In this document: positions 1,391 to 62,543 of the stretch, piece by piece
Layout: every line of letters starts with the position of its first letter
How positions within the stretch are numbered: the first letter of the stretch is position 1
Source: Tegillarca granosa
Taxonomy: Eukaryota
Direction of reading: 5' to 3'
Assembly: GCA_029721355.1 (NCBI GenBank)
Contig: CM056607.1
Location: 8,275,309-8,339,308, forward strand
Length of the DNA stretch: 64,000 bases
Position numbers and translations under genes: made by a program
Notes under the pieces: model-generated
Databases searched by the model: none
The model's input: the letters and a program-made list of their open reading frames with translations, nothing else
Told to the model about the DNA's origin: nothing

Positions 1391-2869
1391 AAGAGGCCCA
1401 TGGGTCTTAACGCTCACCTGAAGATATTGTCCAATGCAGTTTGCAAAGTGCAATAGGCAATATATTAAGTACAGAAACTTTAAAAGTTTTCTCAAGTTAA
1501 GAAATCTCACAAAACTTAATCAGAAATATATCCACTCACATTTCGTTTATAAGTAGCTTATATAATATGCATGAAGTAATTGTAGTGCAATGAATAATTT
1601 CCAAATCATAAATCAATTACAGTATACTAACGCAGCTATGCCCTTGACCTTTGAACATATATGACCTCTAAATATATATGATTGTCATGTCAATACCTAC
1701 AATATTCTAATATTCATGCCTATACAAAAAGTTAATAATTTTCAAGATATTTAGCAATTTAAGTCTTCTTTTGCGGCTGTGACCTTGACCTTTCAATATA
1801 TGACCTTGAACCATATATCAAAATGATCGTCATGTCAATACCTACAATATTCTAATAAACATGCCTATACAAAAGGTTAATAGTTTTCAAGATAATTAGC
1901 AAATTGTCTTCTTTTGCAGCTGTGACCTTGACCTTTCAACATATGACCTTGAACCATATATCAAAATGATCGTCATGTCAATACCTACAATATTCTAATA
2001 AACATGCCTATAAAAAGGTTAATAGTTTTCAAGATAATTAGCAATTTAAGTCTTCTTTTGCAGCTGTGACCTTGACCTTTCAACATATGACCTTGAACCA
2101 TATATCAAAATGATCGTCATGTCAATACCTACAATATTCTAATATTCATGCCTATACAAAAGGTTAATAGTTTTCAAGATAATTAGCAATTTAAGTCTTC
2201 TTTTGCAGCTGTGACCTTGACCTTCCAACATATGACCTTTAACCATATATCAAAATGATTGTCATGTCAATACCTACAATATTCTAATATACATGCCTAT
2301 ACAAAAGGTTAATAGTTTTCAAGATATTTAGCAATTTAAGTCTTCTTTTGCAGCTGTGACCTTGACCTTTCAACATATGACCTTGAACCATATATCAAAA
2401 TGATCGTCATGTCAATACCTACAATATTCTAATATTCATGCCTATACAAAATGTTAATAGTTTTCAAATATTTAGCAATTTAAGTCTTCTTTTGCAGCTG
2501 TGACCTTGACCTTTCAATATATGACCTTGAACCATATATCAAAATGATCGTCATGTCAATACCTACAATATTCTAATATACATGCCTATACAAAAAGTTA
2601 ATAGTTTTCAAGATATAGTGACAAATATATAATTTTTATCAAATTCCCCACTCAGTGCCTCACAATTTCCCCATTTTGAGTCCCATGGCTACCATTTGTG
2701 CAAATCTGAAAATAGATGACCTAAGGATGTTATAAATGAAATAACTAAGGTATATCTCTTGTAGATTCAGAGGAGAAGATTTTTAAAGTTTTTCACTATT
2801 TCCCCCCTTATGGGGCCCCAAGGGGACATAACTCCTTCATTTCAGCTTTCAGCTCAGGTGAGCTAAAAA
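1391..2869. mobile_element. MITE-like non-autonomous element (copy A) with GCTCACCTGA-type terminal inverted repeats and an internal satellite array. It lies in CD2BP2 intron 1.
   Basis: Left end aagaggcccatgggtcttaacgctcacctgaag (about 1391-1423). Right end cagctcaggtgagctaaaaacc (about 2851-2872). The termini are mutually inverted (core gctcacctga). Both ends are homologous, in inverted orientation, to the ends of the element at 37762-38895. No ORF. Confidence 0.6.
1620..2630. repeat. Satellite-like tandem array, about 143-144-bp unit x ~7, inside MITE copy A
   Basis: gtcatgtcaatacctacaatattctaata recurs at 1681, about 1831, about 1974, about 2118 and onward. Units are >90% identical. Confidence 0.85.
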
Positions 2870-10379: not shown

Positions 10380-10526
10380 ATGTGCAGTGTTGAACCAACA
10401 TCTCGAATGGGTGTGGCCCTTGATTTGATTTTAAAAACTCTGATTGCATCACAAGACTTCAATGAACTTCAAACCAAGAATTGGGATGCCATAGCCAGAC
10501 TTATTCCAGGCACAAGTCCTGGTCAG
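10380..10526 (+). CDS. SANBR: SANT-BTB gene coding exon 1, MCSVEPTSRMGVALDLILKTLIASQDFNELQTKNWDAIARLIPGTSPGQ (start of SANT/Myb-like domain)
   Basis: Acceptor tttctgcag at 10343 and an upstream in-frame TAA mark this as the first in-frame ATG. Donor cag|GTCAGT. It continues in frame into exon 2 to give NWDAIARLIPGTSPGQVARRYEEL, a SANT consensus. Confidence 0.65.
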
Positions 10527-10913
10527 GTCAGTTGAAAATACATGTACATGTAGATTGTTTTAATAATAATATTGCATCTACAGATATAAATTGTATAATT
10601 AATATTTTTCTAGTGAACAGCAGAAGTTAAGAAATTAAAATGAAAATATTGTTACACAAACACAACACAAGAATACTGGTACTTTGAAAATCCAATTTAA
10701 ACCATAGATAATAATTTTTGTTAGAGAGGTACCAGTCTTTTTTTTTTAAAAAAATGAACGAGATGATTGTTTAATATACAAAAGCCAAATCATTCAACAA
10801 AAAACACTGTAGATAATTATTATAAAAAACTATGTAATAGTTAAGGTCTGCAGTTTTATCCACTCTTTTACTATATTACTAAAATGACAACATTGTTTTT
10901 CTTTAATTTTCAG

Positions 10914-11030
10914 GTTGCCAGAAGATATGAAGAATTACTTTTAACTGGAGATGTTTTTGCATTAAATCAGTTTGACAAGAATTTTAATATTCCTGGAAGC
11001 TCGTCTCAAGTCAGTCTAACAGAATCTGAT
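10914..11030 (+). CDS. SANBR: SANT-BTB gene exon 2, VARRYEELLLTGDVFALNQFDKNFNIPGSSSQVSLTESD
   Basis: Anchored to ORF 10884..11099. Acceptor ttttcag. The donor gat|GTCAGT is chosen because it is the only one phase-compatible with exons 3 and 4. Confidence 0.6.
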
Positions 11031-11097
11031 GTCAGTAGTAAAGCTAGCAGTAGTAGACCTGGCTCAGGAAGACAAAAAGGCATGTATCTGATCACAT

Positions 11098-12003: not shown

Positions 12004-12306
<303 letters not shown>

Positions 12307-12670: not shown

Positions 12671-12680
12671 CTATTCACAG

Positions 12681-12739
12681 AGGCAAATAATGTAATTTCA
12701 ATACTGATATCGTCTGACTTCCTAAAAATGGATACTCTA
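12681..12739 (+). CDS. SANBR: SANT-BTB gene exon 5, EANNVISILISSDFLKMDTL
   Basis: Acceptor cacag and donor GTAAGT. Phase-consistent. A BTB helix. Confidence 0.7.
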
Positions 12740-13067
12740 GTAAGTACTAAAACTTGATAATAAAATTCAAGGATGTCCCTGTTTGCTTGCACTTGAGATA
12801 TTTCTTAGCTTTTATAATTCTCTTAAAACTTTTTTACATTTACCAGTATATTTTAAAGATTAAATCAACAAGATTTAAGTTTTAATCATTTCTGATGGTA
12901 GCAATTTTAAGTTCAGTTTTGGAACAAGTTAATTTGTATTCTTGTTATGACATCATCAGTAAACAGGCTTCCAAAATGAAAAACATTAACTGTAATTTAG
13001 GTGCAAACAACACTACAGTATATACTGTTCTAATGGTCACACATGTATAAGGGACACCTGTCTATAA

Positions 13068-13322
<255 letters not shown>

Positions 13323-13941
13323 TAAGTACTTGTATATATACTTTAACTAAAACCTTTTGATGCCTAATGTCACAGCAAATGTGTCGAAGAAATTATCCTC
13401 ACTCTTCATTGATATATGTACAAATACTTGGGTATTATTTTCTGCAACTTCACATTGAGCATGTGACATTTAAATGAAATACAGTAAAACATTGACAATT
13501 GAGCTTCATTACAATTAACTTGAAATCATTATTTAGTCTAAACTAGCTGTTTTTTAACTGTCATTGTCTCAAATTCCCAAAACTAAAACTCTCAGTTAAT
13601 TGGAAGTCAAAATTGATGTCCTTTGTACTTTGATTTATCAAATTTTGAGTGTAATCTTGTATAAGACATAAAACCCACATGTGCTGAAAAAAAAGTAGGC
13701 TGGATGCTATAACTGTTAAAAAATAATAATAAAACAAGCCTGAAATGTTTGACTGATAAAAAATTAATTTCATCTTAATAAGCAAAAGCAGACCAAGTTT
13801 TGATGTTGAAAGGTACTTTTTGGATAGTTCCTTATTCCTTGATCAATTAACATCCTCTAAACAAGATACTTTAGCTGAATTTATTTGGTTCAGTTATCCT
13901 TTAGATCTGCTGCATATTACACAATTATTTCTCTGTTTCAG

Positions 13942-14007
13942 AATTGCAGATTTGTTTACACACAATGAAGCTGATGATATTAAAGATAGAAAAGACAAGT
14001 TTAAAAG
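13942..14007 (+). CDS. SANBR: SANT-BTB gene exon 7, (R)IADLFTHNEADDIKDRKDKFK(R)
   Basis: Anchored to ORF 13820..14011. Acceptor tttcag and donor GTAACT. Confidence 0.7.
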
Positions 14008-14616
14008 GTAACTTTGTTATCTAGTCACATTACATTAAAGTTGAGGCATATGTTTTATTCTGTAGATAAAGTCCTTGAAGTCTTTTTTTTTTTTTTTTTT
14101 TTTCATATTTACTATATCAAACCATCAAGGTGGGACACAAAGTAACAAGTAATTCTTGTTTACACATAACTTTGTATACATTTATTAACAGGTTACAGTG
14201 CCTCTCTTCCCAGGTTCAAATCCCACTCGGGCAAAATACTGTGAGAAAGTTTGTCAGTTAGTTTACTGTATGTGGGCAATTTTCTTCTGCCACTCAGGTC
14301 TCCTCTACCATATAAGTGAAATACTCTTCCACCCCACTGTTTTGAGAAAACCTTTGACTTTTAAACTATTTAATACAATTTGATATAACTAGCATTGTCA
14401 TTCATGTAAAACCTAAATGTAAAATTCAGAACCATTCCAGTCTAAGTTTTGTTTCTTGATTCAGTATGCTGATTAACAAATCTTTACATTAGAAATTTTT
14501 ATATTTTAATGTGAAAGCTTTGTGTAATGTATCCCCATAATAAGAATACAGTTTCAGTTGGTGGGGGTACAGCTGCACCAAACAATGTGAGTCTATACTT
14601 TTGTTTTTTATTACAG

Positions 14617-14703
14617 TAAATTGTTTGCTAAGAAGCTAGAGAAGTTGTTTGACACAGAGACAGTTAACCCAGATTCACCAGAGACAGCTTCGTCAATATT
14701 TAG
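14617..14703 (+). CDS. SANBR: SANT-BTB gene exon 8, (S)KLFAKKLEKLFDTETVNPDSPETASSIF(R). Its 3' 58 nt plus the donor are tandemly repeated about 29 times in the downstream intron.
   Basis: Acceptor ttattacag and donor GTAAGT. Phase-consistent with anchored exons 7 and 9. Confidence 0.7.
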
Positions 14704-16500
14704 GTAAGTTGTTTGACACAGAGACAGTTAACCCAGATTCACCAGAGACAGCTTCGTCAATATTTAGGTAAGTTGTTTGACACAGAGACAGTTAACCCAG
14801 ATTCACCAGAGACAGCTTCTTCAATATTTAGATAAGTTGTTTGACACAGAGACAGTTAACCCAGATTCTCCAGAGACAGCTTCGTCAATATTTAGGTAAG
14901 TTGTTTGACACAGAGACAGTTAACCCAGATTCACCAGAGACAGCTTCATCAATATTTAGGTAAGTTGTTTGACACAGAGACAGTTAACCCAGATTCACCA
15001 GAGACAGCTTCGTCAATATTTAGGTAAGTTGTTTGACACAGAGACAGTTAACCCAGATTCACCAGAGACAGCTTCGTCAATATTTAGGTAAGTTGTTTGA
15101 CACAGAGACAGTTAACCCAGATTCTCCAGAGACAGCTTCGTCAATATTTAGGTAAGTTGTTTGACACAGAGACAGTTAACCCAGATTCACCAGAGACAGC
15201 TTCATCAATATTTAGGTAAGTTGTTTGACACAGAGACAGTTAACCCAGATTCACCAGAGACAGCTTCGTCAATATTTAGGTAAGTTGTTTGACACAGAGA
15301 CAGTTAACCCAGATTCACCAGAGACAGCTTCGTCAATATTTAGGTAAGTTGTTTGACACAGAGACAGTTAACCCAGATTCACCAGAGACAGCTTCATCAA
15401 TATTTAGGTAAGTTGTTTGACACAGAGACAGTTAACCCAGATTCACTAGAGACAGCTTCGTCAATATTAAGGTAAGTTGTTTGACATAGAGACAGTTCAC
15501 CCAGATTCACTAGAGACAGCTTTGTCAATATTTAGGTAAGTTGTTTGACACAGAGACAGTTAACCCAGATTCACCAGAGACAGCTTCATCAATATTTAGG
15601 TAAGTTGTTTGACACAGAGACAGTTAACCCAGATTCACTAGAGACAGCTTCGTCAATATTTAGGTAAGTTGTTTGACACAGAGACAGTTAACCCAGATTC
15701 ACCAGAGACAGCTTTGTCAATATTTAGGTAAGTTGTTTGACACAGAGACAGTTAACCCAGATTCACTAGAGACAGCTTCGTCAATATTTAGGTAAGTTGT
15801 TTGACACAGAGACAGTTAACCCAGATTCATTAGAGACAGCTTCGTCAATATTTAGGTAAGTTGTTTGACACAGAGACAGTTCACCCAGATTCGCTAGAGA
15901 CAGCTTTGTCAATATTTAGGTAAGTTGTTTGACACAGAGACAGTTAACCCAGATTCACCAGAGACAGCTTTGTCAATATTTAGGTAAGTTGTTTGACACA
16001 GAGACAGTTAACCCAGATTCACCAGAGACAGCTTCGTCAATATTTAGGTAAGTTGTTTGACACAGAGACAGTTAACCCAGATTCACCAGAGACAGCTTCG
16101 TCAATATTTAGGTAAGTTGTTTGACACAGAGACAGTTAACCCAGATTCACCAGAGACAGCTTTGTCAATATTTAGGTAAGTTGTTTGACACAGAGACAGT
16201 TCACCCAGATTCACCAGAGACAGCTTTGTCAATATTAAGGTAAGTTGTTTGACACAGAGACAGTTAACCCAGATTCACCAGAGACAGCTTCTTCAATATT
16301 TAGATAAGTTGTTTGACACAGAGACAGTTAACCCAGATTCACCAGAGACAGCTTCTTCAATATTTAGGTAAGTTGTTTGACACAGAGACAGTTAACCCAG
16401 ATTCACCAGAGACAGCTTTGTCAATATTTAGGTAAGTTGTTTGACACAGAGACAGTTAACCCAGATTCACCAGAGACAGCTTTGTCAATATTGAGGTAAG
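14641..16500 (+). repeat. 64-bp minisatellite x ~29 that reiterates the 3' 58 nt of SANT-BTB exon 8 plus its GTAAGT donor. Every copy carries a potential 5' splice site.
   Basis: The unit gtaagttgtttgacacagagacagttaacccagattcaccagagacagcttcgtcaatatttag recurs with period 64 (tagg at 14701, 14765, 14829 and onward). Copies are >95% identical. A few carry ataagt or ttgag variants. Confidence 0.9.
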
Positions 16501-17078
16501 ACAGACAATCTCTTGTTAACTTCTTCAGTTTGATTTGTTCCGAGTTATAATATTTAATCCTGAAGAATTGGATTTGTCTTGTATTTATTTCAGAAAGGCA
16601 AGACAAAACTTAAAATTAAGACCAACTTTACAAATTTTTTTAGATTTCCTAGATTAATGTAGTATTTTTTGAGAAATCCTGATGACCAGCATTTCAGCAA
16701 CAATAATATAACCCACTAAAATATAAACTTAGTGGAGAAGTGTATGTGTCATCATCATCATTGGTTTCTTTTGATTAACATGCAGGTTCAGAAGCGGGTT
16801 AGTAGGTTCCCTTCTAGATGACTGGCTAGCTGCATGCATGGCAAATTTCACCCCGTGTCTCCATTTCTTATGATCATGAGGGTTGGTTGTCAGTGGGGAA
16901 ATTCATTTGCCTTTAAACATATGATACTGTCTATAATTGAATAGTTGAAGAATATATAAATTAAGTGTTTATATATGAATCATTAACTTGAAATAATTTA
17001 CACTTTCAGATGTTCAGTATGTAAAAAGTTGCTGACTAAAACATTAGAAAAAAGGGTTAGATGTATGCCAAGCAGGTA

Positions 17079-17140: not shown

Positions 17141-17354
17141 TCCATCTTTTCATCCAGTCATTCCTCTATCATTCCTTCCTTTTCCTTATCATAGTTTTTT
17201 TTTGTTTTTTATAGTTGACACCATTATGATTGCTTGTGTACCCCCATGATTTAATTGTTTTAAGGATAAAAATCAATATTTATATGTGAATTCAATTAAA
17301 AAATCAATTTTTAGGGAATCCTGTGACATAATAGTACTTTTTTTTACATTTCAG

Positions 17355-17670
17355 AATAACTGTTGATAAAAGAGGAAAGTTAATGTATTGTCATATAAAG
17401 GACAATAGTTTTGATATAAATGACTACCTCTTAGAACTTAAAACACAACTTAAAAACTGGAGGGAGGTTTACTGGAGAATCTGGGGGTTAATTAATTATC
17501 TAACATGTACAAGGTGTTTGGAGACATTCCCATGTACAGAGTTTGGTCACTGTAAATATCATCCTGAACCCCCGAGATACGACAATGAAGGTGGTTTGTC
17601 ACAATGTATCGGGACTTATCCTTGTTGTCATCAGAAAACCCTTCGTTTTGATCCAGTTCAACAGAGCAAG
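17355..17670 (+). CDS. SANBR: SANT-BTB gene exon 9, ITVDKRGKLMYCHIKDNSFDINDYLLELKTQLKNWREVYWRIWGLINYLTCTRCLETFPCTEFGHCKYHPEPPRYDNEGGLSQCIGTYPCCHQKTLRFDPVQQSK (Cys/His-rich)
   Basis: Anchored to ORF 17383..17775. Acceptor atttcag and donor GTAAAC. Confidence 0.8.
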
Positions 17671-18185
17671 GTAAACAATATGTGTGTATTTAATCATAAA
17701 TTGGCATGTCTGTATGTAGATTGCTTAGTGTTTGTGAACATTTTTTTTCAATTTTTGTTAATTGTTTTTTTATGATACATGCATTAGAACAAAAATTTAA
17801 ATAGTTCACTGGTTTAAAAAAGAAAGCCTTTATTATTTTATTCTTGGAAACAGTTTCAGTTTATCAAATGTTAAAAAAGAATAGTTTTAATAACAAAAAA
17901 AAAAAGAAAAAAAGAAAAGAAAGAAAGAGAAAAAAGAAAATGAAATAGAAATAATAAGTGTAGTTTTATTGCTTTTGAGACTAGTTTACAAGTATGGTAA
18001 TAACTAGGGTTATATTTTGAGGGTTAATTGTACATTTCGATAGGTTTGATAATGTTCAAGTAGATAAAGTTGTAATTTTTAAAAAATTCTTCAAGGAATC
18101 TTGAATCATAAAATGGATTGATGATATATTTCTTTGTTCTGAATTTTGATAAACTGTATATTATATCTAACATTGAACATCACAG

Positions 18186-18340
18186 GGTTGCAGAGTAAGG
18201 GATCATATTGTATCATTTCCTGAATGTGATTCATCGAGTGAGATAGATTTATCAAAACCAATGAGGAACAGAGTTTACGATGATTTATTAGCACACAGAG
18301 ATGTTGTCTGTGTACCATATCAAAGACTTACAGATGCCAG
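18186..18340 (+). CDS. SANBR: SANT-BTB gene exon 10, GCRVRDHIVSFPECDSSSEIDLSKPMRNRVYDDLLAHRDVVCVPYQRLTDA(R)
   Basis: Acceptor catcacag and donor GTATGG. 155 nt. Phase-consistent with anchored exons 9 and 11. Confidence 0.65.
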
Positions 18341-21884: not shown

Positions 21885-22140
21885 TTAATAAAAAATTGTC
21901 TCACACAATTGATGAAAAAATTGCTGACACAGCATAAATGTCACACAATTGACGAAAAAATTGCTGACACAGCATAAATGTCTCGCACAATTGACAAAAA
22001 AATTGCTGACACAGCATAAATGTCTCACACATTGCTGACACAGCATAAATGTCTCACACATTGCTGACACAGCATAAATGTCTCACACAATTGACAAAAA
22101 AATTGCTGACACAGCATAAATGTCTAACACAATTGACAGA
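21885..22140. repeat. About 41-bp tandem repeat x ~6 (ttgctgacacagcataaatgtctcacacaattgacaaaaaaa) in SANT-BTB intron 10
   Basis: Direct reading. It produces the cysteine-rich ORF artefact 21885..22070. Confidence 0.85.
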
Positions 22141-23149
22141 AAAAATTGCTGAATCAGCATAAAACACTATGTAACAAAACAAACTTTATAAAATCACAAG
22201 CAAGTAAAACAATGAAATTAAGTTGGTTAATTATGATCCATACAACATGCTGAACACTTCACAACAGAGATACGGTGATCAGAAATCTGTCTAGCAAAAT
22301 ACTGATATAGGGATATATCACAACAAAGTATCTGTTTAGAAATTTTTTATTAGATAAATCTTTATCTATATGTCGTCTGTTTGGTGAAGTTTTAATCTCT
22401 CGTTGATATCATATGTGTTTATTTTCATGTAACATAAGTTTAATGAAATCATTAAATGTTTGGGCATTTGATGATTACTGTATATTAATTTTGATTTACC
22501 ATAAAGAATTTATTTATATGTGTTGTATTAAAATTTTGAAATTTTTAAATACCAGTGAAAATAAATCCTTTCATATTTTAAGTTTACATTTTGTGTACTA
22601 CATATGAAAGTGATTTAGTCTTGTTTAAGATTTGGTTCTTTTTATGTCCAAAAATTTCTTTTTACACCTCGTATCTCTAAAATGAAGAAAAAATTGACCT
22701 CAATAAAGGTGTTTCAGTTACACAAACAACAAACAAAACACAGACATTCAACAAATATTGGAAATCTAAAATGGTGTAAACATGATTTGATGCAGTGTTT
22801 TTATGTGTAGAGTTGTAGTGTAGTTGTCTCCCCTGACATCTGTATATCTATAATAATGTAGTATTTTGGTCTTTGTATGGACACAGATTAACTTAACCAC
22901 AAGATTTGTTTACTATATTAATAATATCATGGTGACAGGAAGTTAATATTACTAGTGCATGATGGGTAAGAGTAAAATAAATAATCTGCTTAATATTATA
23001 TACATGTACTGTTAATGGTTATTTGGTCCAAAAATGAAAGGAAGGATCGTGATATTTTGATTTTTGAAATAAAGGTTATTAGAGTTTATAATGTGCCATG
23101 TGATACCCCTTAATGTTTGTGCAGAGTTATTGTCTCTCTGGTGTAATAA

Positions 23150-24314: not shown

Positions 24315-24426
24315 TGAACTTGAGTTAAATGTTTTTGCTAATGAAGAGTACGCCTGTACTAACCATGGTAGCGGTAAAGCGATTCCATCACTCATGTCTG
24401 CAGCAGATGATGACAAAAAATCAGAG
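24315..24426 (+). CDS. SANBR: SANT-BTB gene exon 11, (S)ELELNVFANEEYACTNHGSGKAIPSLMSAADDDKKSE
   Basis: Anchored to ORF 24295..24480. Acceptor ttattcag and donor GTAATG. Confidence 0.7.
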
Positions 24427-25010: not shown

Positions 25011-25641
25011 ATTTCATAACCTGTGGAAAGAATTGTTCTGCACAAAGACTTTGGAGTATCACATGATATGCTGGTGATTCCCATTGTGTTGCTGCATCAG
25101 GATTTTCACAAGTATTTGATCATCATTGCATGATAAGATGTACAGAGTATGACTTCGTCAGCTACATAAGCCCAAAATCTACAACAACAAAAAACAAATA
25201 GTTAAAATTAATTAATAAAAAATGTTTTCCAAATATGTAGTAAACACAAGGAATTTAAAGAAACATTTATATGGTATGCAGCAGAACTTTGATAATTCAT
25301 AATTCAGTATTATTTTCTCAAATACCATAGATATTTTTGTTCCAGAATTTTTCTCTGCCTTTCCTAAAACTAAAAAAAAACCAGCAAGATCTTTAAATAA
25401 AAACAGAAGTTGATTTTCAAAATTTCACTGTGTAAAGGGCATACAATGTTTTTGAAATTTCACTTTGTAATATTTTTCAATTCTAAATTTTGCATTATCT
25501 GGATGCAAAAAAAACAAAACAAAAAACACTAATTCAAACCTTCGTTAATTGCTTCTGTTCTTTGTTGTATCCGGGGACATGTCACTGGTAAATTTTTGTA
25601 ACCAATGGTTACCATGACTTTGTTTGTTATATATTTATCAG

Positions 25642-25768
25642 ACTACAAGACCACAACCTAGACTTCAAGCATTAACAGTTGAAAGAGAACTATCCTTTGA
25701 GTATGATGATATAGGAATGGGAGAAAGCGATGATGAACTAGGGGATGATGAACAACCCAAGACAACAG
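25642..25768 (+). CDS. SANBR: SANT-BTB gene exon 12, TTRPQPRLQALTVERELSFEYDDIGMGESDDELGDDEQPKTT(G). Its 3' end plus the donor are tandemly duplicated in the downstream intron.
   Basis: Acceptor tttatcag and donor GTAACT. Phase-consistent. Confidence 0.65.
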
Positions 25769-26360
25769 GTAACTTATTGATTAAATAAGACAGGAGAAAG
25801 TTATGATTAACAACAAAAGACAACAGCTAACTAATAACTAAAATTGAGAAAGTACTGATGAACTAGGAAATAATGGACAACCTAAGGCAAAAGGTAACTG
25901 ATGAATTAAATAAAACAAGAGAATGTGATGATGAAAAAGGGGTGATGAACAACCCAAGACAACAGGTAACTTATTGATTAAATAAGACAGGAGAAAGTTA
26001 TGATTAACAACAAAAGACAACAGGTAACTAAATGATTAAAATTGAGAGAGTACTGATGAACTAGGAAAAAGTGGACAACCTTAGGCAAAAGGTAACTGAT
26101 TAATAAAATAAAAGAAGAGAATGTGATGATGAAATAGGGGTGATGAACAACCAAAGACAACAGGTAACTGATTAATTAATTAATTAAAACAGGAGAAAGT
26201 GATGATCAACAACCCAAGACAACAGGTAACTGATTAGGGTAATTAAATAAAACAGGAGAAAGTGATGATTAACTAAAGGTTGACAAAACAACTGATTACT
26301 TATACATAAAAAGGGAGAAAGTGATAATGAACCTGAGAATCACAAACAACCAATAACAGC
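25769..26360 (+). repeat. Tandem duplications of the 3' end of SANT-BTB exon 12 plus its donor (gatgatgaacaacccaagacaacagGTAACT motif x ~9, sub-units about 65 bp, higher-order about 190 bp)
   Basis: Motif copies at about 25750, 25940, 26000, 26140, 26200 and 26330, interspersed with gtaactgat/attaaataa blocks. Confidence 0.8.
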
Positions 26361-27197
26361 AGGTAACTAAATGCATTATCAATCATGAATAACCCAAGAA
26401 AATTGGTTATTGAATAAAATATGAAATTTGGAAGAAAATGATTATAAAACCAACTAAATTTGTACAAGTTACATTTCTCCATTTTTACTTCACTCCTTTC
26501 AAAAATCATTAATAAACTGCAACATAAGATGTAAGATGAGTGTGTAAAATAATGATGATTCATGACATCATTGATTTATAATAATTGTTACTATGGTGAT
26601 ACATCTACCTGTAATGAATTTTGTTTATGGAGCTATTTTTATCTATCTTAATATTGATGTTTAAGATGTTTTATATTTAAGAATTGACGTTTTGGATACT
26701 GATTTATAAAATTTCAACACTTTTTGTAACCAGTATAATTCAGTCTTACTGGATTACAAATTTCAGTCTTACAAATAAAACATAGTTATAGCTTATTTTT
26801 TTCTTTGGTTTAGCATTATAAAAGTACCAGACATATATTAGATTTTCATCACAAATATTTTTACTGCAGTCTTTTTTTATGATCAAACTCATTTATTTTC
26901 ATATGTTTGTATAGGTAAACATCTTCAGTTACCAGTATGTGTCAATATGTTGGATACATTTCCTTCTCTGTTGTATCTTGTAAGCTGATGACTCTTTGGC
27001 TCAAATCCTTTGCACTTGGCCGAGATCTCTTTTATGATTAAGTTCTGGGCACAATAAAAGTATTAAATTACAATACAATATTAAGTTTAAAATATTTTAT
27101 AAGCATAACTAATGAATTATACAAATATGATTATTACAATTGCATAGTTGAAATCTTGAAAGTACATGTATTTTGATAGTTGACACTTCTCTTTTAG

Positions 27198-27276
27198 CAA
27201 GGAGAAATCGAGGGTTCCGGAAATCTAGAGTTACAATTGATCCACAAGCCATTTTGTTGGATGCTCCAGATTTTGA
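27198..27276 (+). CDS. SANBR: SANT-BTB gene exon 13, (A)RRNRGFRKSRVTIDPQAILLDAPDF(E)
   Basis: Acceptor ctcttttag and donor GTAAGT. Phase-consistent. Confidence 0.65.
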
Positions 27277-27292
27277 GTAAGTAAATTGGTAT

Positions 27293-28298
27293 CAGGTCAA
27301 TTCGCCCCACGGTAAATTCGCCCCCGTCAAATTTGCCCCCACTTCTTGCAAATTCGTCCCCATGTCAAAATCGCCCTCTTTAAATTTGCCCCACTTCTTG
27401 AAAATTCGCCCCCATCAAATTCGCCCCCAACTTTTATTGAGATTTTTCCTTTTTTAAACTTTTTTTTATAATTATTAATTTTATATTACCTCGAACATGC
27501 CAAATTAATACTGTTAACATATTATTTGTAAATATGCATTGTTTGTTGCAATTTATGTCGAGTATTCATAATGCATTTCACTGAATTCACATATAAGATA
27601 GCCCAGGTGTGTTGTGATTACTGTAATAACTTATATTGAAATGGTGGTTATCAAAAGTCTTTTGTATGATTATTGCTATTTACCTCTAACCACCAACTGT
27701 CCACAGTTTCATCTTGGACAAATATATGGAACTATTAGACGGTACTAGACAATAGCTGTTGTTTGTATGGATAATATATTTAATTAATCAATAAAAACTT
27801 TTCTTAAGTGAAATATTGCTACAGTCCACTACCGTAGCCTCCAGTATTTAGAGTTGAGTTATGGTGTTTAACTCCCAAGTCAAAAATATTTCACTTCAAT
27901 AAGTAGATGTCACACCAGCTATCATAATGCTGAGTGCTTTGCGGTCTTGGACCATACCTTGTCTGGGTTCTAACTCACGACCTCCAACTTATGGTGCGAT
28001 TACTCTGCCAACTGAGCTACCACATTTAGACCTGCTACCTTTGTCACTTATGGAGAGCACAGGTACCAGGGGGAATTTACTTTAGCACGTCGTCATAAAT
28101 CAACTCATAAGTTATTACTACAAAATGAAGTTTAGAAAAAATTGGGGCGATTTTGTTCGTCAGGGCGAATTTGTTAAAAGTGGGGGCGAATTTGCCCGAA
28201 GTGGGGGCGGTTTTGAACGAGGGCCAATTTGTTAAAAGTGGGGGCGAATTTGACGGGGGGGATTTTACCGTGGGGCGATTTGACTTGAATTCGTAAAT
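27293..28298. mobile_element. About 1-kb foldback/MITE-like element with ~130-bp TIRs built from aattcgccccc sub-repeats. It carries an internal tRNA-derived SINE fragment and lies 16 bp downstream of the exon 13 donor.
   Basis: Left ggtcaattcgccccacggtaaattcgcccccgtcaaatttgccccc... (27293-27430). The right arm at 28140-28298 is its reverse complement (gggggcgaatttgacggggggg attttaccgtggggcgatttgac). The internal segment 27840-28030 ends in the tRNA-like ggtagctcagttggcagagtaatcgc on the minus strand. Confidence 0.6.
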
Positions 28299-29011
28299 TT
28301 GTTTCGTTTAGAGAGAATACATAACACTAAGATAAGTTGGTCAATGATTAACAAACATTTAAAACATAACAATGTGCTTCATTTTGATAAAATTCTGTTC
28401 TCTTTCGACATTTTCAATATTAATTTTTTTTATCATATTTGACATCATGCAAATTTCAAATTTTTACCAATTAGATAATAATTTAAGCCTATTAAGTATA
28501 TATTTTAGTTATCAAATGTAAGCTCATTTGGATTAAGAAGGGTCACAGTCTGTCATTTGCTATCTTGAAAATTAAAATATGCTACTTTGAATATCAGTAT
28601 CTGATCTTAAAATTTTGATTAACTGTACAGGCAAGCTATATTGTAAATGTTGATGGATTAGTTGTGGCAAGGTATGTTGTAAATGTAACAGTTATCGTTT
28701 TGTCTGTACTTTTAGTGTTCAAATTCAAACTAGAAAAATTATCTTAGTTTAATTACACATATTTAATCTGGTCATATCAGAAAAATGTGAAGAAAAACTT
28801 CATGAATTTGCATTGATTTGGAAATTTCAAATTTGAGAGCAAAACAAATGATAGACATTTGAATCATGTTACTTGTAAAAATAATTCTTCATGTTATACT
28901 TAGAAAAACAGTCAGAAAAAAACACTACACTTACACATACGTAAAAATGCTATTGATAAATTGTATAGAATGCATTTAGAAACTATTGATCATATTTATT
29001 TTAACTTTTAG

Positions 29012-29082
29012 TCAAACAAAAAAATCAACATGGGATACAGGAAGATCAATGAGGTATAACCAAGATGCCCAGAGACAAGAAG
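29012..29082 (+). CDS. SANBR: SANT-BTB gene exon 14, (D)QTKKSTWDTGRSMRYNQDAQRQE
   Basis: Acceptor aacttttag and donor GTAGGA. 71 nt. Phase-consistent with anchored exon 15. Confidence 0.6.
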
Positions 29083-29623
29083 GTAGGATGACTTTATATT
29101 TTCAAGTAAAATTGAAAGTTGATTGTAATATGGTCAGATTCATTGGACAGACATGATAAACATATCAATTATTGATGATAGATATATCAATTATTAGAAT
29201 AATTAGATATGATTTATCATTGTCATTGGCATTATACTTGCTGATTGGGATAGTGATTCAAAAGCTAAAGCATATCAATGCAGGTAACCTTTATTTATAA
29301 ATCTCACTTAAAATTGGTGTTTATTTCATTGTCTCTCAAGTTCCATCATAAGCTGTTCGCTAGGCCATTATAAATATTTCATACAATAGGAAAAGCATCA
29401 ATTTGAAAGTCTTCATGGAGAGTAAGTAACAGGAGACAACTGTGAAATTAAACATGTAAAAACATTTCTGTGTCTTTTCATTTTCTGAGACATGGTATCA
29501 GTTTCCATTTGTAGAGTTTTAAGATCAATTTCTTTATGGTATATATCACAAGAAAGCTGTTCTTCTAAGTATTGTTGCTTATTTTCATCCTGTTAGTAAA
29601 TAATTTTTGTCTGCTGTTTTTAG

Positions 29624-29712
29624 ATCATCGCAGAATGAAAGAGATTAGATACTATCTTACAAAATTAAGATTAAATACAGACAAAGTAGACAAACCAAAT
29701 TTAAAGAGAGAG
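29624..29712 (+). CDS. SANBR: SANT-BTB gene exon 15, (D)HRRMKEIRYYLTKLRLNTDKVDKPNLKRE
   Basis: Anchored to ORF 29572..29802. Acceptor gtttttag and donor GTAAGT. Confidence 0.7.
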
Positions 29713-30190
29713 GTAAGTAAAGTATATCAAATGATTTCTTACTTTTATTTCGACGATATTTGGAATATAAAACTTTTTATGTTAACCTTTGTTCTGAATT
29801 AGATTCTCTCTCTAAGGTGATTTGATTTAACACTAAAGAATGAAGTGGAGTAATGGAGTTTTTTGCTTAGTCAAGATTGTTTCAGTTATATTGAGTTCTT
29901 TCCAGGACGGTTAAAAACTTTGTACCTCTGCACTGAATAATAAGTCCTCTGAGCTACACAGATCCCTGCATTCCTTCTTTCCAATTTTATGATTTAGTTA
30001 CCATGAATTAAAAACCTGTCGATAAACCACTTCTAATGGTTGGAAGGTCAAAATCTTACTTTTAGCAATTTAGATAGCAGCTATAGAGTTAAGTTAACTT
30101 GACATTTCCTCTTATACAGGGCTTCAACAGAACAATGATTGAAGTTAACACAAGTTGTATTTTAATTCTGTTTTTGTTAATTATTATAGT

Positions 30191-30280
30191 ATAGTGGAGG
30201 TATGTACTGTAAATTAGAAGGAATTTGGAAGTCACAGTATCTACAGACCAAACAACAGGGACCTCCTTCATTTAGGTGAG
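30191..30280 (+). CDS. SANBR: SANT-BTB gene terminal coding exon, YSGGMYCKLEGIWKSQYLQTKQQGPPSFR*, stop TGA at 30278-30280
   Basis: Acceptor tattatag, phase 0, in-frame TGA. The stop overlaps a consensus donor-like AGGTGAGT, so use of a further downstream exon cannot be excluded. Confidence 0.55.
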
Positions 30281-37761: not shown

Positions 37762-38895
37762 CATTTTTAGCTCACCTGAGCACTCAAGTGAGCTATAGCG
37801 ATGGGTTATTGTGCATCGTGCAATCTTAATCAAACATTTTCAGAATGATCTTCTTGACAAAAGCAAGCTCAAATTCATATATGGGCCATGTTGGGTCAAT
37901 AAGTAGGTCACTGTCAAATTGTAGAAAAACCTTGTTAACACTACTGAGGCCCCAATTTTAGTCCAATCTTCATCAAACTTTCTCAGAATGATCTTCTTGA
38001 CATAAGCTAGCTCATGTTCGTATATGGGCCATGTTATTCAATAAGTAGGTCGCTAGGTGAAATTGTAGAAAAACTTTGTTAACACTCCTGAGGCCCAAAC
38101 TTTCGCCCAATTTTCATCAAACTTGCTCAGAATGATCCTCTTGACAAAAGCTAGCTCCATTTGGTATATGGGCCATGTTGGGTCAATAAGTAGGTCACTA
38201 AGTCAAATTTTAGAAAAACCTTGTTAACACTTCTGAGGCCCCAATTTTAGTTCAGTCTTTTTCAAACTTCGTCAGAATGATCTTCTTGACAAAAGCTAGG
38301 TCAACTTCGTATATGGGCCATGTTGGGTCAATAAGTAGGTCACTAGGTCAAAATGTAAGAAAACCTTGTTAACACTCCTGAGGTTCAAATTTTAATCCAA
38401 TTATCATCAAAGTTAGCCAGAATGATCCTCCTGACAAAAGCTAGCTTAAGTTCGTATATGGGCCATTTTGGGTTTATAAGTAGGTCACTAGGTCAAATTG
38501 TTAAAAAAAAAACCTTGTTAACACTCCTGAGGCCCCAAATTTAGTCCAATCTTCATCAAACTTGGTAAGAATGATCCTCTTGACAAAAGCTAGCTCGGGT
38601 TCGTATATGGGCTATGTTGGGTCAATAAGTAGGTCACTAGGTCAAATTATATAAAAACCTTGTTAACACATATGAGGGATCAATTTTAGACCAATCTTAT
38701 CAAATTGGCTTAGAATGATCCTCCTGACAAAAGCTAGCTTAAGTTCGTATATGGGTCATGTTTGGTCAATAAGTAGGTCACTAGCTCGAAATATAGGAAA
38801 AATCTCCTTTAAGAATAGAAGCTCCAGTTTGCTAAAATCAAGCTGAGTGTACATCATTTCAGGTGAGCGTCCAGGGCCTTCATGGCCCTCTTGTT
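37762..38895. mobile_element. MITE-like element (copy B) of the same family as 1391-2869 but in opposite orientation, carrying an internal 143-144-bp satellite
   Basis: Left end tttttagctcacctgagc is the reverse complement of the copy A right end. Right end ttcaggtgagcgtccagggccttcatggccctctt is the reverse complement of the copy A left end. Confidence 0.65.
37800..38800. repeat. Satellite-like tandem array, 143-144-bp unit x ~7, inside MITE copy B. Its sequence is unrelated, or only distantly related, to the array in copy A.
   Basis: tatatgggccatgttgggtcaataagtaggtcac recurs at 37878, 38021, 38165 and onward. Confidence 0.85.
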
Positions 38896-49157: not shown

Positions 49158-49326
49158 TTAAATTGAAAATGGATGGTATTTGAGATATTCCTTCAAGCGG
49201 ATTGGAAGGTGGAGATGATCGATACATGTTGAATCCAGACACTTCCGAATTGCCATTCTGCTAAAATGCTGTAGAGAAGGAACCTTTTGTCTTGGGTTGT
49301 AAAACTTAACATCACCATTACGATCC
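49158..49326 (-). CDS. WSB1: WSB1 homolog last coding exon (SOCS box), (G)DRNGDVKFYNPRQKVPSLQHFSRMAIRKCLDSTCIDHLHLPIRLKEYLKYHPFSI*
   Basis: Anchored to ORF 49158..49355. Acceptor ctcacag. Matches the human WSB1 C-terminus (RQVPSLQHLCRMSIRR...LPIPSKLLEFLSY). Confidence 0.85.
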
Positions 49327-49889
49327 CTGTGAGAGAAAAAATAACAAACAGTCACTTTATTAATCCTAAAAAAAATTGTAATAAATTACATATAAAGTTG
49401 TCTGCTGAGTAAACTAATTTTGTACAGTTTCAGTCATGATTAGAAGACATAATTTGTGTTTATATATTGATAGACCACAGACAATAGTTTTATATCACAT
49501 TTGCTACACATTTTTTTATATTATATTTGCTAGCACATTTGCTACACATCTTTGTTTTTACCACATTTGCTTGTACATTTCCTACAACTTTTTGTCTGAC
49601 TCATATAAAATTCTGTTTTAAAAACGGATTAGATACTTGTTTTTATCATAATTTTACAATACAAAATCAATCTTCCTGATATTTTTTTTACCAAATTTGT
49701 TTTACTATGTCAAATAAAATTTGAACATAACATCCAATTTATTTTTTTCATTTGGAAGACATTTTAAATCTTTATGCAATAAGTATGTCAATAAGTGAAA
49801 TAATAAGTAACAAATGGGTAATATAAGAATATTTTAAACTACTTTTTGCTTTGTCTCATTCATAAATATGTCTATTGTGATAAACTGAC

Positions 49890-50290
49890 ACTCCATTTCG
49901 TTGATCAGAATATGACACAGGACAGATTGACTGACACTCCACTATACCAGTATATGATCACAGGACAGATTGACTGACATTCCAGTTTGTATACCAGTAA
50001 ATGATCACAGGACAAACTGACTGACACTCCACTATACCAGTATATGATCATGAGACAGACTTACTGACACTCCACTATACCAGTATATGTTCACAGGGCA
50101 GACAGACAGATTCAGTTTGTATACCAGTATATGATCACAGGACAAACTGACTGACACTACTATACCAGTATATGATCACAGAACAGACTGACAGACACTC
50201 CACTATACCAGTATATGATCATGAGATGGACTTACTGACACTCCATTTTGTTGATCAGTACATGTATATGATCACAGGACAGACTGACTG
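49890..50290. repeat. Degenerate, longer-unit (~55-60 bp) tandem repeats ancestral to the adjacent 45-bp array, in a WSB1 intron
   Basis: Units such as gatcacaggacagattgactgacactccactataccagtatat grade into the 45-bp unit. Confidence 0.75.
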
Positions 50291-52110
50291 ACACTCCAGT
50301 TTGTTGATCAGTATATGATCACAAACATTCTATTGACAATCGAGTCACAGAATAGACCGACTGACACTCCACTATACCAGTATACAATCACAGGACAGAG
50401 ACTGACACTCCAGTTTGTTGATCAGTATATGATCACAAACATACTACTGACACTCCAGTTTGTTGATCAGTATATGATCACAAACACTCAACTGAGACTC
50501 CAGTTGATCAGTATAAGATCACAAACATTCTACTTAGACTCCAGTTTGTTGATCAGTATATGATCACAAACATTCTACTGACACTCCAGTTTGTTGATCA
50601 GTATATGATCACAAACATTTTACTGACACTCCAGTTTGTTGATCAGTATATGATCACAAACATTCTACTGAGACTCCAGTTTGTTGATCAGTATATGATC
50701 ACAAACACTCTACTGACACTTCAGTTTGTTGATCAGTTTATGATCACAAACACTCTACTGAGACTCCAGTTGATCAGTATAAGATCACAAACATTCTACT
50801 TAGACTCCAGTTTGTTGATCAGTATATGATCACAAACATTCTACTGACACTCCAGTTTGTTGATCAGTATATGATCACAAACATTTTACTGACACTCCAG
50901 TTTGTTGATCAGTATATGATCACAAACATTCTACTGACACTCCAGTTTGTTGATCAGTATATGATCACAAACACTCTACTGACACTTCAGTTTGTTGATC
51001 AGTATATGATCACAAACACTCTACTTAGACTCCAGTTTGTTGATCAGTATATGATCACAAACATTCTACTCATACACCAGTTTGTTGATCAGTATATGAT
51101 CACAAATACTCTACTGACACTCCAGTTTGTTGATCAGTATATGATCACAAACATTCTACTTAGACTCCAGTTTGTTGATCAGTATATGATCACAAACACT
51201 CTACTGACACTCCAGTTTGTTGATCAGTATATGATCACAATCACTCTACTGACACTCCAGTTTGTTGATCAGTATATGATCACAAACACTCTACTGACAC
51301 TTCAGTTTGTTGATCAGTATATGATCACAAACACTCTACTTAGACTCCAATTTGTTGATCAGTATATGATCACAAACACTCTACTGACACTCCAGTTTGT
51401 TGATTAGTATATGATCACAAACACTCTACTAAGACTCCAGTTTGTTGATCAGTATATGATCACAAACACTCAACTTAGACTCTAGTTTGTTGATCAGTAT
51501 ATGATCACAATCACTCTACTGACACTCCAGTTTGTTGATCAGTATATGATCACAAACATTCTACTGAGACTCCAGTTTGTTGATCAGTATATGATCACAA
51601 ACACTCTACTTAGACTCCAGTTTGTTGATCAGTATATGATCACAAACATTCTACTTAGACTCCAGTTTGTTGATCAGTATATGATCACAAACATTCTACT
51701 GACACTCCAGTTTGTTGATTAGTATATGATCACAAACACTCTACTTAGACTCCAGTTTGTTGATCAGTATATGATCACAAACACTCTACTGACACTCCAG
51801 TTTGTTGATCAGTATATGATCACAAACATTCTACTGACACTCCAGTTTGTTGATTAGTATATGATCACAAACACTCTACTTAGACTCCAGTTTGTTGATC
51901 AGTATATGATCACAAACACTCTACTTAGACTCCAGTTTGTTGATCAGTATATGATCACAATCACTCTACTGACACTCCAGTTTGTTGATCAGTATATGAT
52001 CACAAACATTCTACTTAGACTCCAGTTTGTTGATCAGTATATGATCACAAACACTCTACTTAGACTCCAGTTTGTTGATCAGTATATGATCACAAACATT
52101 CTATCAAAAA
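50290..52110. repeat. Homogenised 45-bp minisatellite x ~40 (gatcagtatatgatcacaaacattctactgacactccagtttgtt) in a WSB1 intron
   Basis: gatcagtata recurs at 50551, 50596 and onward with period 45. Because 45 = 15 codons, it creates the repetitive MITNILLTLQFVDQY ORFs in the track. Confidence 0.95.
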
Positions 52111-52669
52111 ATAGACTGACTGACTCTCAGGATAGGCATTGTTTAGATAATTTATTGCATAAACTGTGTACTAGACTAGATAAATAGATATGTTAACTTT
52201 AGCAGAAGGAAGGGTAATATTTCACTTATTTGTTTAAACAAGGTCACTGACATAATTTTACTTTATAAATTCAGGTACAGGTATGTCAAAATGCCATATT
52301 GTTTTAGGTATACATTTGTAAACACCAACATAAAATGTTAAAACTGTCAGATGACCAATGAATAAATTCTTGTCTGAAAGGCCATTGACTTACCGACTAT
52401 ATGTACCGTATACTATATCTTAGTTAAAGTAAATGTACTATATTTCTATCTTAGTTAATGTATTGATAAATAACAAAACAAACAAGCACATACCTGGTTG
52501 TTTGTTTAGGATAAATGGGTCAAATATTAGTGTTCTCTTACTTCAAAGTGTTTTTATGAATGACTTTAATCAACAAGGTGTATTTAGACATTGATCATAG
52601 TCTGCATAAACAAGTGTATCCTGTAAACATGTGGGTTAGGACTACAGAAATGCATGTACTAATAGTAGT

Positions 52670-53290
52670 ATATAGCAGTTGTTAATAAAAATCTTGTTAT
52701 GATTTTATTATTATTGGGGGAGGGGGGAAGTTTTCATCTGTTTTTATTATTAATTAATACGAGGGCAAAGAGAACTAAAGAAATAATTAATAGTGATTAA
52801 TTAAACTTTTGTTACAAATCTTGTTATGATTTCGTTATTATTGGGGGAGAGAGTTATCATCTGTTTCCATTATTAATTAAAGAGAACTAGAGCAATAATT
52901 AATACAGTTTAATTAAACTTTTGTCACAAACCTTGTTATGATTTCATTATTATCAAAAGGGGGATGGAGTGGAGAGAGGAAGTTATCATCTGTTTTTAAT
53001 AATTAATATGAGGGTAAAGAGAAGAAGAGAAATAATTAAGAGTTTAATTAAACATTGTTACAAATCATGTTATTATTTCATTATTATTGGGGGTGAGGGT
53101 TGGAGGGAGGGGAGTTGTCATCATTCTGTTTTAATTACAAATTAACATGAGGGTAAAGAGGACTAGAGCAATAAATTATAGTATTCAATTAAACTTTTGT
53201 TAAAAAAAACTTGCTACCAGTCTATTATCTTCATTATTTTGGGAAGGAGAAGGGAGGGGAGTTTATCATCTATTATTGTAATTAATCAAA
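52670..53290. repeat. About 125-bp tandem repeat x 5 with G-rich (gggggagggg) and AT-rich (attaattaa) blocks
   Basis: atcatctgtttt recurs at about 52736, 52858, 52988 and 53120. Confidence 0.8.
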
Positions 53291-56200: not shown

Positions 56201-56696
56201 CACAGACTTTCCTGAACACTTAATTAAATAAATAGTGGCTAAAATAACATTTTAAATTTGTAAACAGCAAGGATACTTCTGTGGCAACTTAAATTATTTA
56301 CTTCAAAACCAATGACAAGTCTGGTTACAGCAGCCATTTTATTTTAAAATCAATTCTGAGAGGAGAACCTGAGTGACCTTGGTTTTCAAAAAAGAAAAAA
56401 AAAACAACGTTTCCTACTGATTTAGATTTTTAGAGGGCAACTAACAGAAAAAAGGTTGGCTTGTGAAATATTCTTGTATATATAAATCATAACATTTTAA
56501 GTGACATTGACCTACTTTATCAAGCTGTTTTAAATGAAATTTGAAACCAGATTGAATCATTCATAGTTTGGCAATATTCCAAATATGAAAATACATTTTA
56601 ATGTATGGACAACAACAAGATGTGACACTAGGAGAAAAAATAATTATAATAATACAAAAGACTGGATGATTTATAAACACATGTCAACTCAAAATG

Positions 56697-56698
<2 letters not shown>

Positions 56699-56736
<38 letters not shown>
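56699..56736. repeat. (TG)n microsatellite
   Basis: Direct reading. Confidence 0.95.
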
Positions 56737-56738
<2 letters not shown>

Positions 56739-56756
56739 ATTTTCTTCAATCCCTCT

Positions 56757-57595
56757 ATCAACTGTGGAGTAGAGGTAAGTTGTTTCACACCCCAGTCAAG
56801 ATCTTATTACTTATACAGAGGCAGTAAGTGGTGGAGGAAACAACATTACCCTGAAAAAACCAACAACTTTTGGCAAGCAACCCTACCTTAGACAGATTTA
56901 AACCTAGGTGGTAAATGTCCCGCTTGACCATCAAGATCTCTATCAACTTTTGGCAAGCAACCCTACCTTAGACAGATTTAAACCTAGGTGGTAAATGTCC
57001 CGCTTGACCATCAAGATCTCTATCAACTTTTGGCAAGCAACCCTACCTTAGACAGATTTAAACCTAGGTGGTAAATGTCCTGCTTGACCATCAAGATCTC
57101 TATCAACTTTAGGCAAGCAACCCTACCTTAGACAGATTTAAACCTAGGTGGTAAATGTCCAACTTGACCATCAAGATCTCTATCAACTTTTGGCAAGCAA
57201 CCCTACCTTTGACAGATTCAAGCCTAGGTGGTAAATGTCCCGCTTGACCATCAAGATCTCTAACAACTTTTGGCAAGCAACCCTACCTTAGACAGATTTA
57301 AACCTAGGTGGTAAATGTCCCGCTTGACCATCAAGATCTCTATCAACTTTTGGCAAGCAACCCTACCTTAGACAGATTCGAACCTAGGTGGTAAATGTCC
57401 CACTTGACCATCAAGATCTCTTTCAACTTTTGGCAAGCAACCCTACCTTAGACAGATTTAAACCTAGGTGGTAAATGTCCAACTTGACCATCAAGATCTC
57501 TATCAACTTTTGGCAAGCAACCCTACCTTAGACAGATTCAAACCTAGGTGGTTAATGTCCCGCTTGACCATCAAGATCTCTATCAACTGTAAAAG
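56757..57595 (-). mobile_element. SINE-related sequence whose tRNA-like segment has been amplified into an 80-bp tandem array x ~9 (56857-57590)
   Basis: ccctacctta recurs at 56881, 56961 and onward with period 80. The unit contains ggttcgaatctgtc-like (T-arm-like) sequence on the minus strand. It is preceded by the SINE body cccagtcaagatcttattacttata. Confidence 0.6.
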
Positions 57596-62400: not shown

Positions 62401-62543
62401 AAAAATCTGATGGTCTTAAGGATTTGTTAAAACCTGATTGCAAGTATATAAAAATTGGGTACTATACGAATAAACACCATATTTCATATGATGTCAGATG
62501 CTTTGGAAGAATAAATATCATAAAGGTTCATAAATATACTAAC

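Follow-up and report, generated by a model that had tools for sequence, protein, structure and literature searches.

Why should an intron open with repeated copies of the exon end and donor that precede it, and why should two introns of the same gene do so? This question is raised by a stretch of eukaryotic DNA of 64,000 nucleotides (31% G+C; hereafter the window), for which a preliminary description reported two exon-donor junctions of one gene, each followed by tandem copies of itself, and considered chance a less likely explanation than a locus- or lineage-specific mechanism.

The gene is a mollusc-like homologue of SANBR/KIAA1841 (SANT and BTB domain regulator, Pfam PF11822), located on the + strand at about 10.4-30.3 kb of the window. 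A concatenate of its candidate exons matched the SANBR proteins of Lymnaea, Lottia, Pomacea, Batillaria, Capitella, and vertebrates with E values from 1e-95 to 1e-60, and the individual exons were mapped by tblastn of orthologue proteins on the window (Table 1). The exon whose end is reiterated downstream had been numbered 12 and is indeed the twelfth mapped in the window. It follows the acceptor ttatcag/ at 25641 (a slash marks the splice boundary), carries the codons for TTRPQPRLQALTVERELSFEYDDIGMGESDDELGDDEQPKTT and the first base of an alanine codon, and is matched by residues 297-338 of a Batillaria protein (P0004; tblastn, E=2e-8). Its adjoining donor is the only one that joins the next exon in frame, giving ...PKTT-A-RRNRGFRKSRVTIDPQAILL in agreement with the orthologues. 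The glycine that had been read after ...PKTT (DDEQPKTTG) occurs only in read-through; the spliced product has alanine at this position, its codon being divided as G/CA across the splice. A second protein search identified spliced transcripts of closer relatives with the same junction, namely P0064 (...DDEQPKGT/ARRGRGLKKSRV), P0066 (...DDEQPRGT/ARKGRG), and the cDNA L008 (...DDEQPKGTGKARRIRKP-VTIDPQ), and these agree with the conserved protein that the donor at 25769 and the acceptor at 27197/27198 would reproduce. The Batillaria exon end reads RPVPRLQALTVEREVS...SDDEIGDDESQQMAG/KRMKGSRKSRVTIDPQAILL, and that of the window RPQPRLQALTVERELS...SDDELGDDEQPKTT/ARRNRGFRKSRVTIDPQAILL. In passing, positions 76-78 of L008 hold an in-frame TAA (gaacgaTaactt) where all others have GAG or GAA; it probably reflects a polymorphism, or an error in a read or in the assembly.

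Downstream of this donor, TRF, the repeat search, and the alignment of units agree that the exon 3' end and its GTAACT donor are reiterated in tandem, as had been proposed. Unit 0 of the array consists of the exon end and the intron start, and about 10 intronic units follow it, of which the repeat search places 8-10 in register (about 9 had been counted). According to the MAFFT alignment, an intronic unit comprises about 49 nt of exon-derived sequence, matching GGAGAAAG-GATGATGAACTAGGGGATGATGAACAACCCAAGACAACAG, the donor hexamer, and about 22 nt derived from the intron start (GTAACT-ATTGATTAAATAAGACA); the unit alignment and the mapping of the exon place the parts in the order exon 3' end, 5' splice site, intron start, repeated head to tail. 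The higher-order period, first estimated at about 190 bp, is 198 bp by TRF (90% matches), and 62-bp sub-periods continue up to 26332. Three monomer types compose it, C (72 bp), A (58 bp), and B (67/68 bp), with identities of 91-98% within a type and 60-84% between types; type A lacks 15 nt through an internal deletion between two GATGA repeats. Repeat family D1 reaches 98% over 93 nt, and the distal units u8-u10 are the most degenerate. When the consensus unit was aligned by Smith-Waterman and compared with shuffles, significance was confined to segments covering 25700-26389 (z of 5.7-36.5), the segment 26360-26449 giving a z of 2.9. The heptamer GGTAACT occurs 10 times in the 64 kb, and eight of these occurrences lie within 25768-26362. 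In total, the array makes up about 45% of its 1429-nt intron, with the exon on one side and unique intron sequence on the other. Sliding identity between the first and second higher-order copies reveals an 81-nt tract without a single difference, made up of the last 23 exon nucleotides, the true donor, and 58 intron nucleotides; outside it, the higher-order repeat is about 90% identical.

It is important to consider that tandem arrays are error-prone in assemblies, so that a mis-expanded repeat could produce a false array, a concern that is greater for the 97%-identical array at the other junction (array 1 in Table 1). Two properties of the array at 25719-26411 make this exceedingly unlikely. 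First, its units differ from one another by 2-40% and carry distinct indels. Second, an ordered three-monomer pattern and a gradient of distal decay are not products of mis-assembly.

Table 1. Coordinates of the SANBR exons, the junction arrays, and other tandem arrays in the window.
Feature	Position (nt)	Strand	Basis or remark
SANBR exon	10389-10541	+	tblastn
SANBR exon	near 10920-11080	+	read from ORF
SANBR exon	12055-12264	+	tblastn
SANBR exon	12680-12742	+	tblastn
SANBR exon	13227-13322	+	tblastn
SANBR exon	13931-14005	+	tblastn
SANBR exon, 3' end seeds array 1	14609-14704	+	tblastn, sequence
Array 1, 64 bp x 29, 97% identity, starts inside exon	14642-16500	+	TRF, sequence
SANBR exon	17005-17076	+	tblastn
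SANBR exon	17353-17670	+	tblastn
SANBR exon	18180-18335	+	tblastn
SANBR exon, weaker match	24316-24417	+	tblastn
SANBR exon, 127 nt, 12th mapped	25642-25768 (tblastn span 25636-25779)	+	tblastn, relatives' transcripts
Authentic 5' splice site CAG/GTAACT (CAACAG/GTAACT), GT at 25769	25769-25774	+	frame, orthologues
Whole tandem array, about 640-650 bp intronic	25719-26411	+	TRF, repeat families D1-D6, MAFFT, Smith-Waterman
198-bp higher-order repeat, 2.6 copies, monomers C-A-B	25721-26231	+	TRF, unit alignment
81-nt tract, 100% identical to 25943-26023	25746-25826	+	sliding identity of higher-order copies 1 and 2
Intact downstream donors (C or A)AG/GTAACT, n=7	25894, 25966, 26024, 26092, 26164, 26226, 26363	+	
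Copies without GT, n=3	25827 (CTAACT), ~26289 (deleted), 26406 (GTTATT, marginal)	+	
SANBR next exon (ARRNRGFRKSRVTIDPQAILLDAPDF), acceptor ctcttttag/ at 27197	27198-27276 (tblastn span 27191-27277)	+	
SANBR exon	29004-29081	+	tblastn
SANBR exon	29623-29727	+	tblastn
SANBR exon	30190-30276	+	tblastn
Minisatellite, 145 bp x 6.5	1678-2616		blastn: own location only
Minisatellite, 42 bp x 6	21897-22163		blastn: own location only
Minisatellite, 145 bp x 6.7	37821-38801 (also given as 37821-38792)		outside the four-array cross-search
Minisatellite, 45 bp x 38	49884-52103		purely intronic; blastn: own location only
Minisatellite, 80 bp x 9	56864-57588		blastn: own location only
16/108-bp GACACTGTCACC-type array	62820-63212	minus-strand gene	purely intronic, not junction-spanning

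The nucleotide alignment of the window's exon end with the units and with four relatives indicates where the copies came from. GAGA(A/G)AGT is present in all four aligned relatives and in the intronic units, whereas the window's exon has AGC; the units thus preserve an older state of the exon. The exon and the units share a CTA (Leu) codon where the relatives have GTT or GTA (GTN, Val), a window-specific change that places the duplication within the window's own lineage. The B-type units carry GCA at a site where the relatives have GGN and the exon and the other units ACA, which is consistent with GCA being an intermediate state and type B the oldest layer. These substitutions point to the adjacent exon as the source of the units and to a direction from exon to intron, in line with the earlier proposal that the exon's own 3' end and donor were duplicated locally: no copies are present elsewhere in the window.

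The opposite possibility is a dispersed repeat or a transposon-borne satellite whose likeness to the exon end is accidental, or from which the exon end even derives. The genome is rich in repeats, and a MITE-like element with inverted AATTCGCCCCC sub-repeats occupies the next intron. However, when the 198-bp block and the array-1 unit were searched against the 64-kb window with blastn-short, only chance matches of 10-19 nt were found outside 25600-26450 and, for both queries, elsewhere, so unlinked copies of the kind that a dispersed family would leave are absent from the window. The exon end is moreover orthologous and length-conserved in distant relatives that have no array, the units carry substitutions specific to the exon of the window's lineage, and no terminal inverted repeats, target-site duplication, or transposon coding remnant surround the array. 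A 28-nt core of the unit had no matches in metagenome contigs either, a weak test in that the host genome lies outside that set. The dispersed-repeat reading is largely refuted, and we consider it very improbable.

The 81-nt tract crosses the true junction at 100% identity, which implies a recent re-duplication or an exchange with an intronic copy (gene conversion). A related observation concerns the protein: the window has PKTT (codons at 25757-25768) where most relatives have PKGT or PRGT and L001 has VKVGT. These codons sit inside the tract that is identical to an intronic copy, so gene conversion is possible, from the array into the exon or the other way round.

The second junction array of the gene, array 1, is real, as had been claimed. 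Its unit consists of 62 nt of exon end plus GT, so that 27 AG/GTAAG donors follow one another, and the last copy leads directly into GTAAGA, the original donor, which the orthologous intron of the relative L002 also has. At the breakpoints, GAG^AAGTTG in the exon and GGT^AAGACA in the original intron, there is an AAG microhomology. Array 1 and the array at 25719-26411 have no sequence in common, and their independence, which had also been asserted, stands. The unit boundaries of array 1, CTTCGTCAATATTTAG/GTAAGT, present a fairly pyrimidine-rich AG followed by a perfect donor; this is the motif of a recursive or dual-specific splice site, repeated 27 times, and a stepwise (recursive) removal of the intron is conceivable.

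The genomic loci of relatives were obtained by searching contigs with the encoded protein, and their exons were placed by tblastn with the window's peptides; the exon order at these SANBR loci is that of the window. In L002-L005 (Logan runs), TRF detected no tandem repeat in 11.5 kb, and the intron orthologous to the one at 25769 measures about 103 nt, with the donor CAG/GTCAGA. The same intron is about 450 nt in L001 (ENA) and contains no copies of the exon end. In L006 and L007 it is absent, the two exons being fused (..GT/ARKGRG; L006 6013-6216) while the neighbouring introns are present. For the array-1 intron, L002 has an orthologue of 198 nt with the donor GTAAGA mentioned above, and L001 has none (305-466; exons fused, ...TLYRCSVCKK). 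The comparison indicates that both window arrays are lineage-specific additions to formerly short introns. L001, a different species, has a junction array of its own: at 13414-13870 of the contig (ENA ERZ26168041), a 98 bp x 4.6 array covers the acceptor of the last coding SANBR exon. Its unit comprises the intron 3' end, the acceptor, and the first ~60 exon nt (tgttgtttcag/TATGCTGGAGGGGCGTTCAGTAAGCTGGAGGCCCAGTGGAGAGCCAACAAC, YAGGAFSKLEAQWRANN), with the authentic exon itself as the final copy. The topology mirrors that in the window, and the phenomenon is confined neither to one lineage nor to donors. A minor array is found in L006 (6388-6452; 30 bp x 2.2), with ATTGATCAG-containing units that end 7 nt before the acceptor of the QTKKS exon (attgatttcag/); these 30-bp units could act as cryptic acceptors.

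Special attention has been given to the claim that two such arrays in one gene exceed chance. We scanned all 30 junctions of the gene and identified reiteration at two of them (z = 39.5 and 22), the other 28 being clean with z < 2. The window contains 13 private minisatellites with a period of at least 20, about one array per 5 kb, and 11 of the 13 lie away from junctions. Four large non-junction arrays and the two junction arrays were searched by blastn within the window, and each matched its own location only. Two further readings of these arrays were tried and discarded: the two 145-bp arrays and a 147-bp array of L001 do not form one dispersed family, as no blastn similarity joins them, and the large arrays at 49884-52103 and 62820-63212 do not adjoin exons of the minus-strand WD-repeat/SOCS-box gene but are purely intronic (~45 nt separate the latter from the downstream acceptor of a WD-repeat exon at 62657-62776, minus strand). 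A null model in which random 64-98-bp duplications were placed on the gene, exonic events being left out, predicts that 10-14% of the non-exonic events span exactly one junction with the present introns, and 26-34% with a compact, L002-like geometry. The probability that at least two of 4-6 arrays do so is 0.05-0.68, depending on the intron lengths assumed. Two arrays in one gene are not beyond chance, and the preference for a special mechanism over chance, expressed in the preliminary description, is not supported by these figures.

The mechanism that would be needed otherwise is one in which the 5' splice sites of this lineage or locus seed tandem duplications at exon-intron junctions, possibly by fork stalling at co-transcriptional U1 or R-loop sites, or by template switching. 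Such targeting would account for two donor-spanning arrays in one gene, for a third, acceptor-side array in the L001 orthologue, and for the similar average of ~64-66 bp per unit in both window arrays. Nevertheless, the null probability above, the many arrays off junctions, and the clean state of nearly all junctions of the gene argue against it. The breakpoints differ as well, 62 exon plus 2 intron nt in array 1 against about 49 plus about 22 nt here, so the junction is no fixed endpoint, and the L001 case spans an acceptor rather than a donor. With 3-5 arrays in the gene, the L001 array is compatible with chance expectation, yet it hints that the SANBR gene may be unusually tolerant or prone, and it is mainly for this reason that we still give an effect specific to the gene or to junctions a small chance; junction targeting as such we consider improbable. 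Frequent local duplication, short ancestral introns, and a harmless topology suffice, and no junction-seeded mechanism is required.

A junction-spanning tandem duplication that grew into an intronic minisatellite, as an ordinary by-product of frequent local tandem duplication, is in our judgement the highly probable origin of the array. The founding event would have been a tandem duplication of ~71 bp in the window's lineage, running from a point in the SANBR exon (~25719) to a point ~22 nt inside the intron. It is likely to have arisen by replication slippage or by microhomology-mediated repair; both had been named as candidates and are the natural mechanism for such an event, with the AAG microhomology at the array 1 breakpoints as the example in this gene. 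For the array at 25719-26411, the right breakpoint and its microhomology are not reconstructable because the distal units are degenerate. Since the left copy remained contiguous with the exon, the first donor would still give the normal mRNA and any further copies would become intron. Unequal exchange or slippage would then have expanded the copies into a minisatellite, the monomers would have diverged into three types, and the three-monomer block of 198 bp would have been duplicated again, while the copy nearest the exon would still be exchanging sequence with it, as the 81-nt tract suggests. The array that resulted is presumably neutral.

Homology points to the first donor as the donor in use. 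It has been reported that, where flanking introns are long, splicing favours those 5' and 3' sites that face each other most closely across the exon (PMC9225289); the introns that flank this exon are ~1.2 and 1.4 kb, and we infer from this that the first donor is chosen by exon definition. In 9-mer quality, the seven intact downstream donors equal the authentic one. Splicing at any of them gives GNLLIK-stop, with an in-frame TAA six codons beyond the end of the exon and the stop at codon 49, and since all of them lead to this stop, their products would be truncated or targets of NMD. The downstream copies are probably silent decoys or NMD substrates: unused decoys most likely, or occasional sources of stop-containing, NMD-prone transcripts. 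If they were used, the non-productive transcripts may entail some mis-splicing cost or serve regulation. Two other outcomes were rejected. Protein isoforms through the downstream donors fail because the extension is not open, TAA being reached at six codons each time. The units as cassette mini-exons (ACAG/GAGAA...CAG/GT) fail on manual reading of the sequence: the A-type reaches TAA, the C-type, at 47 nt, causes a frameshift, and a pyrimidine tract is missing from the acceptor.

An alternative would give the repeated donors a function, as a cluster of 5' splice sites in a purine-rich, enhancer-like context that recruits U1 snRNP and SR proteins and thereby supports exon definition, shields a long intron from premature polyadenylation, or diverts transcripts to NMD in a regulated manner. 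Several U1 snRNPs can bind where alternative 5' splice sites are present (PMC3413131), the seven intact copies have an identical exonic context, and a premature stop on any use would suit regulation by unproductive splicing. Against this, the donor 9-mer ranks only 11th of 73 windows in conservation among the intronic units, no excess conservation of the donor motif that would reflect selection to keep decoys was detected among the units, and the GT has been lost by substitution or deletion in three of the 10 copies. All relatives lack the array and yet conserve the protein and the splicing pattern, and the companion array has a different donor sequence. We regard a functional decoy cluster as decidedly improbable. 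Equally slim, in our estimate, is the prospect that the SANBR arrays as a set (the two window donors and the L001 acceptor) are no accidents but mark a junction-targeted hotspot that also serves as a gene-conversion reservoir for the exon, or a regulated decoy-donor/NMD switch. Rfam at gathering thresholds returned no hits in the whole window, and hence no match to a structured non-coding RNA.

The array at 25719-26411 is an internal tandem gene duplication that includes splice signals and has matured into a minisatellite, a category that is already known. A model of internal duplication including a splice site was reportedly put forward by Rogers in 1989, and ATP2A1 is said to be such a case, described by Hellsten and colleagues in 2011. 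Tandem duplication with splice sites included is an accepted class of event (PMC2891723; PMC4974935), with cases of splice-signal duplication in Drosophila (Lehmann et al. 2010, PMC2891723) and in potato (Ma et al. 2016, PMC4974935) and a survey of internal gene duplication by Gao and Lynch (2009), as cited in PMC4974935. The likeness is close: an exon and its splice signal are copied in tandem, the outer site, here by prediction, keeps the mRNA intact, and the rest becomes intron. However, these duplications mostly comprise a single copy or a few and are discussed as origins of introns or of altered intron positions, whereas here about 10 units with a higher-order structure have lengthened a pre-existing intron by ~640 nt, have created no new intron or exon boundary, and have retained exchange with the exon.

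The array is also a minisatellite in its make-up, with head-to-tail units within the range of 10-100 bp and a multi-monomer period (TRF 198 and 62; types A, B, and C), and it resembles intronic VNTRs in its 58-72 bp units, its 198-bp period, its decay towards one edge, and the recent exchange between copies. It differs from them in that the first unit is a coding exon under purifying selection; consequently, the array is anchored to a splice junction and keeps "fossil" exon states. Studies of competing 5' splice sites (Hodson et al. 2012, PMC3413131; Carranza et al. 2022, PMC9225289) likewise deal with several equally strong donors per exon, with a choice expected from proximity and from exon versus intron definition. 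Those studies used engineered pairs, whereas the window presents a natural array of eight identical candidate donors. Repeated intronic AG/GT motifs are shared with recursive or dual-specific sites (AG/GTAAGT; polyubiquitin architecture, PMC10809524). Array 1 (TTTAG/GTAAGT x 27) resembles this motif and the array at 25719-26411 does not: recursive splice sites were rejected there, since the sequence upstream of the AG is the purine-rich ACCCAAGACAACAG (A/C/G-rich AACAACCCAAGACAACAG), which provides no polypyrimidine tract and so no plausible 3' splice site.

The array is thus a clean natural example of a junction-crossing tandem duplication that lengthens an intron. It preserves a dated fossil record of what the exon was before and sets eight donors of equal strength one after another. 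No new mechanism is revealed, and two cases in one gene are what short introns and the frequent birth of minisatellites lead one to expect. With RNA data, the locus could serve as a natural experiment in the spliceosome's choice between identical 5' splice sites, as could the 27-donor array 1.

A few features of the surroundings are recorded here. In the intron after the next exon, two inverted clusters of AATTCGCCCCC-type sub-repeats (27295-27428 and 28163-28252) lie ~850 bp apart and look like the ends of the MITE-like element. By eye, from ORF translations on the minus strand, positions 1-547 look like a CD2BP2-type protein (...LLKPGESIVKALRRLGG...) and positions 49161-64000 like a WD-repeat/SOCS-box (WSB-like) protein.
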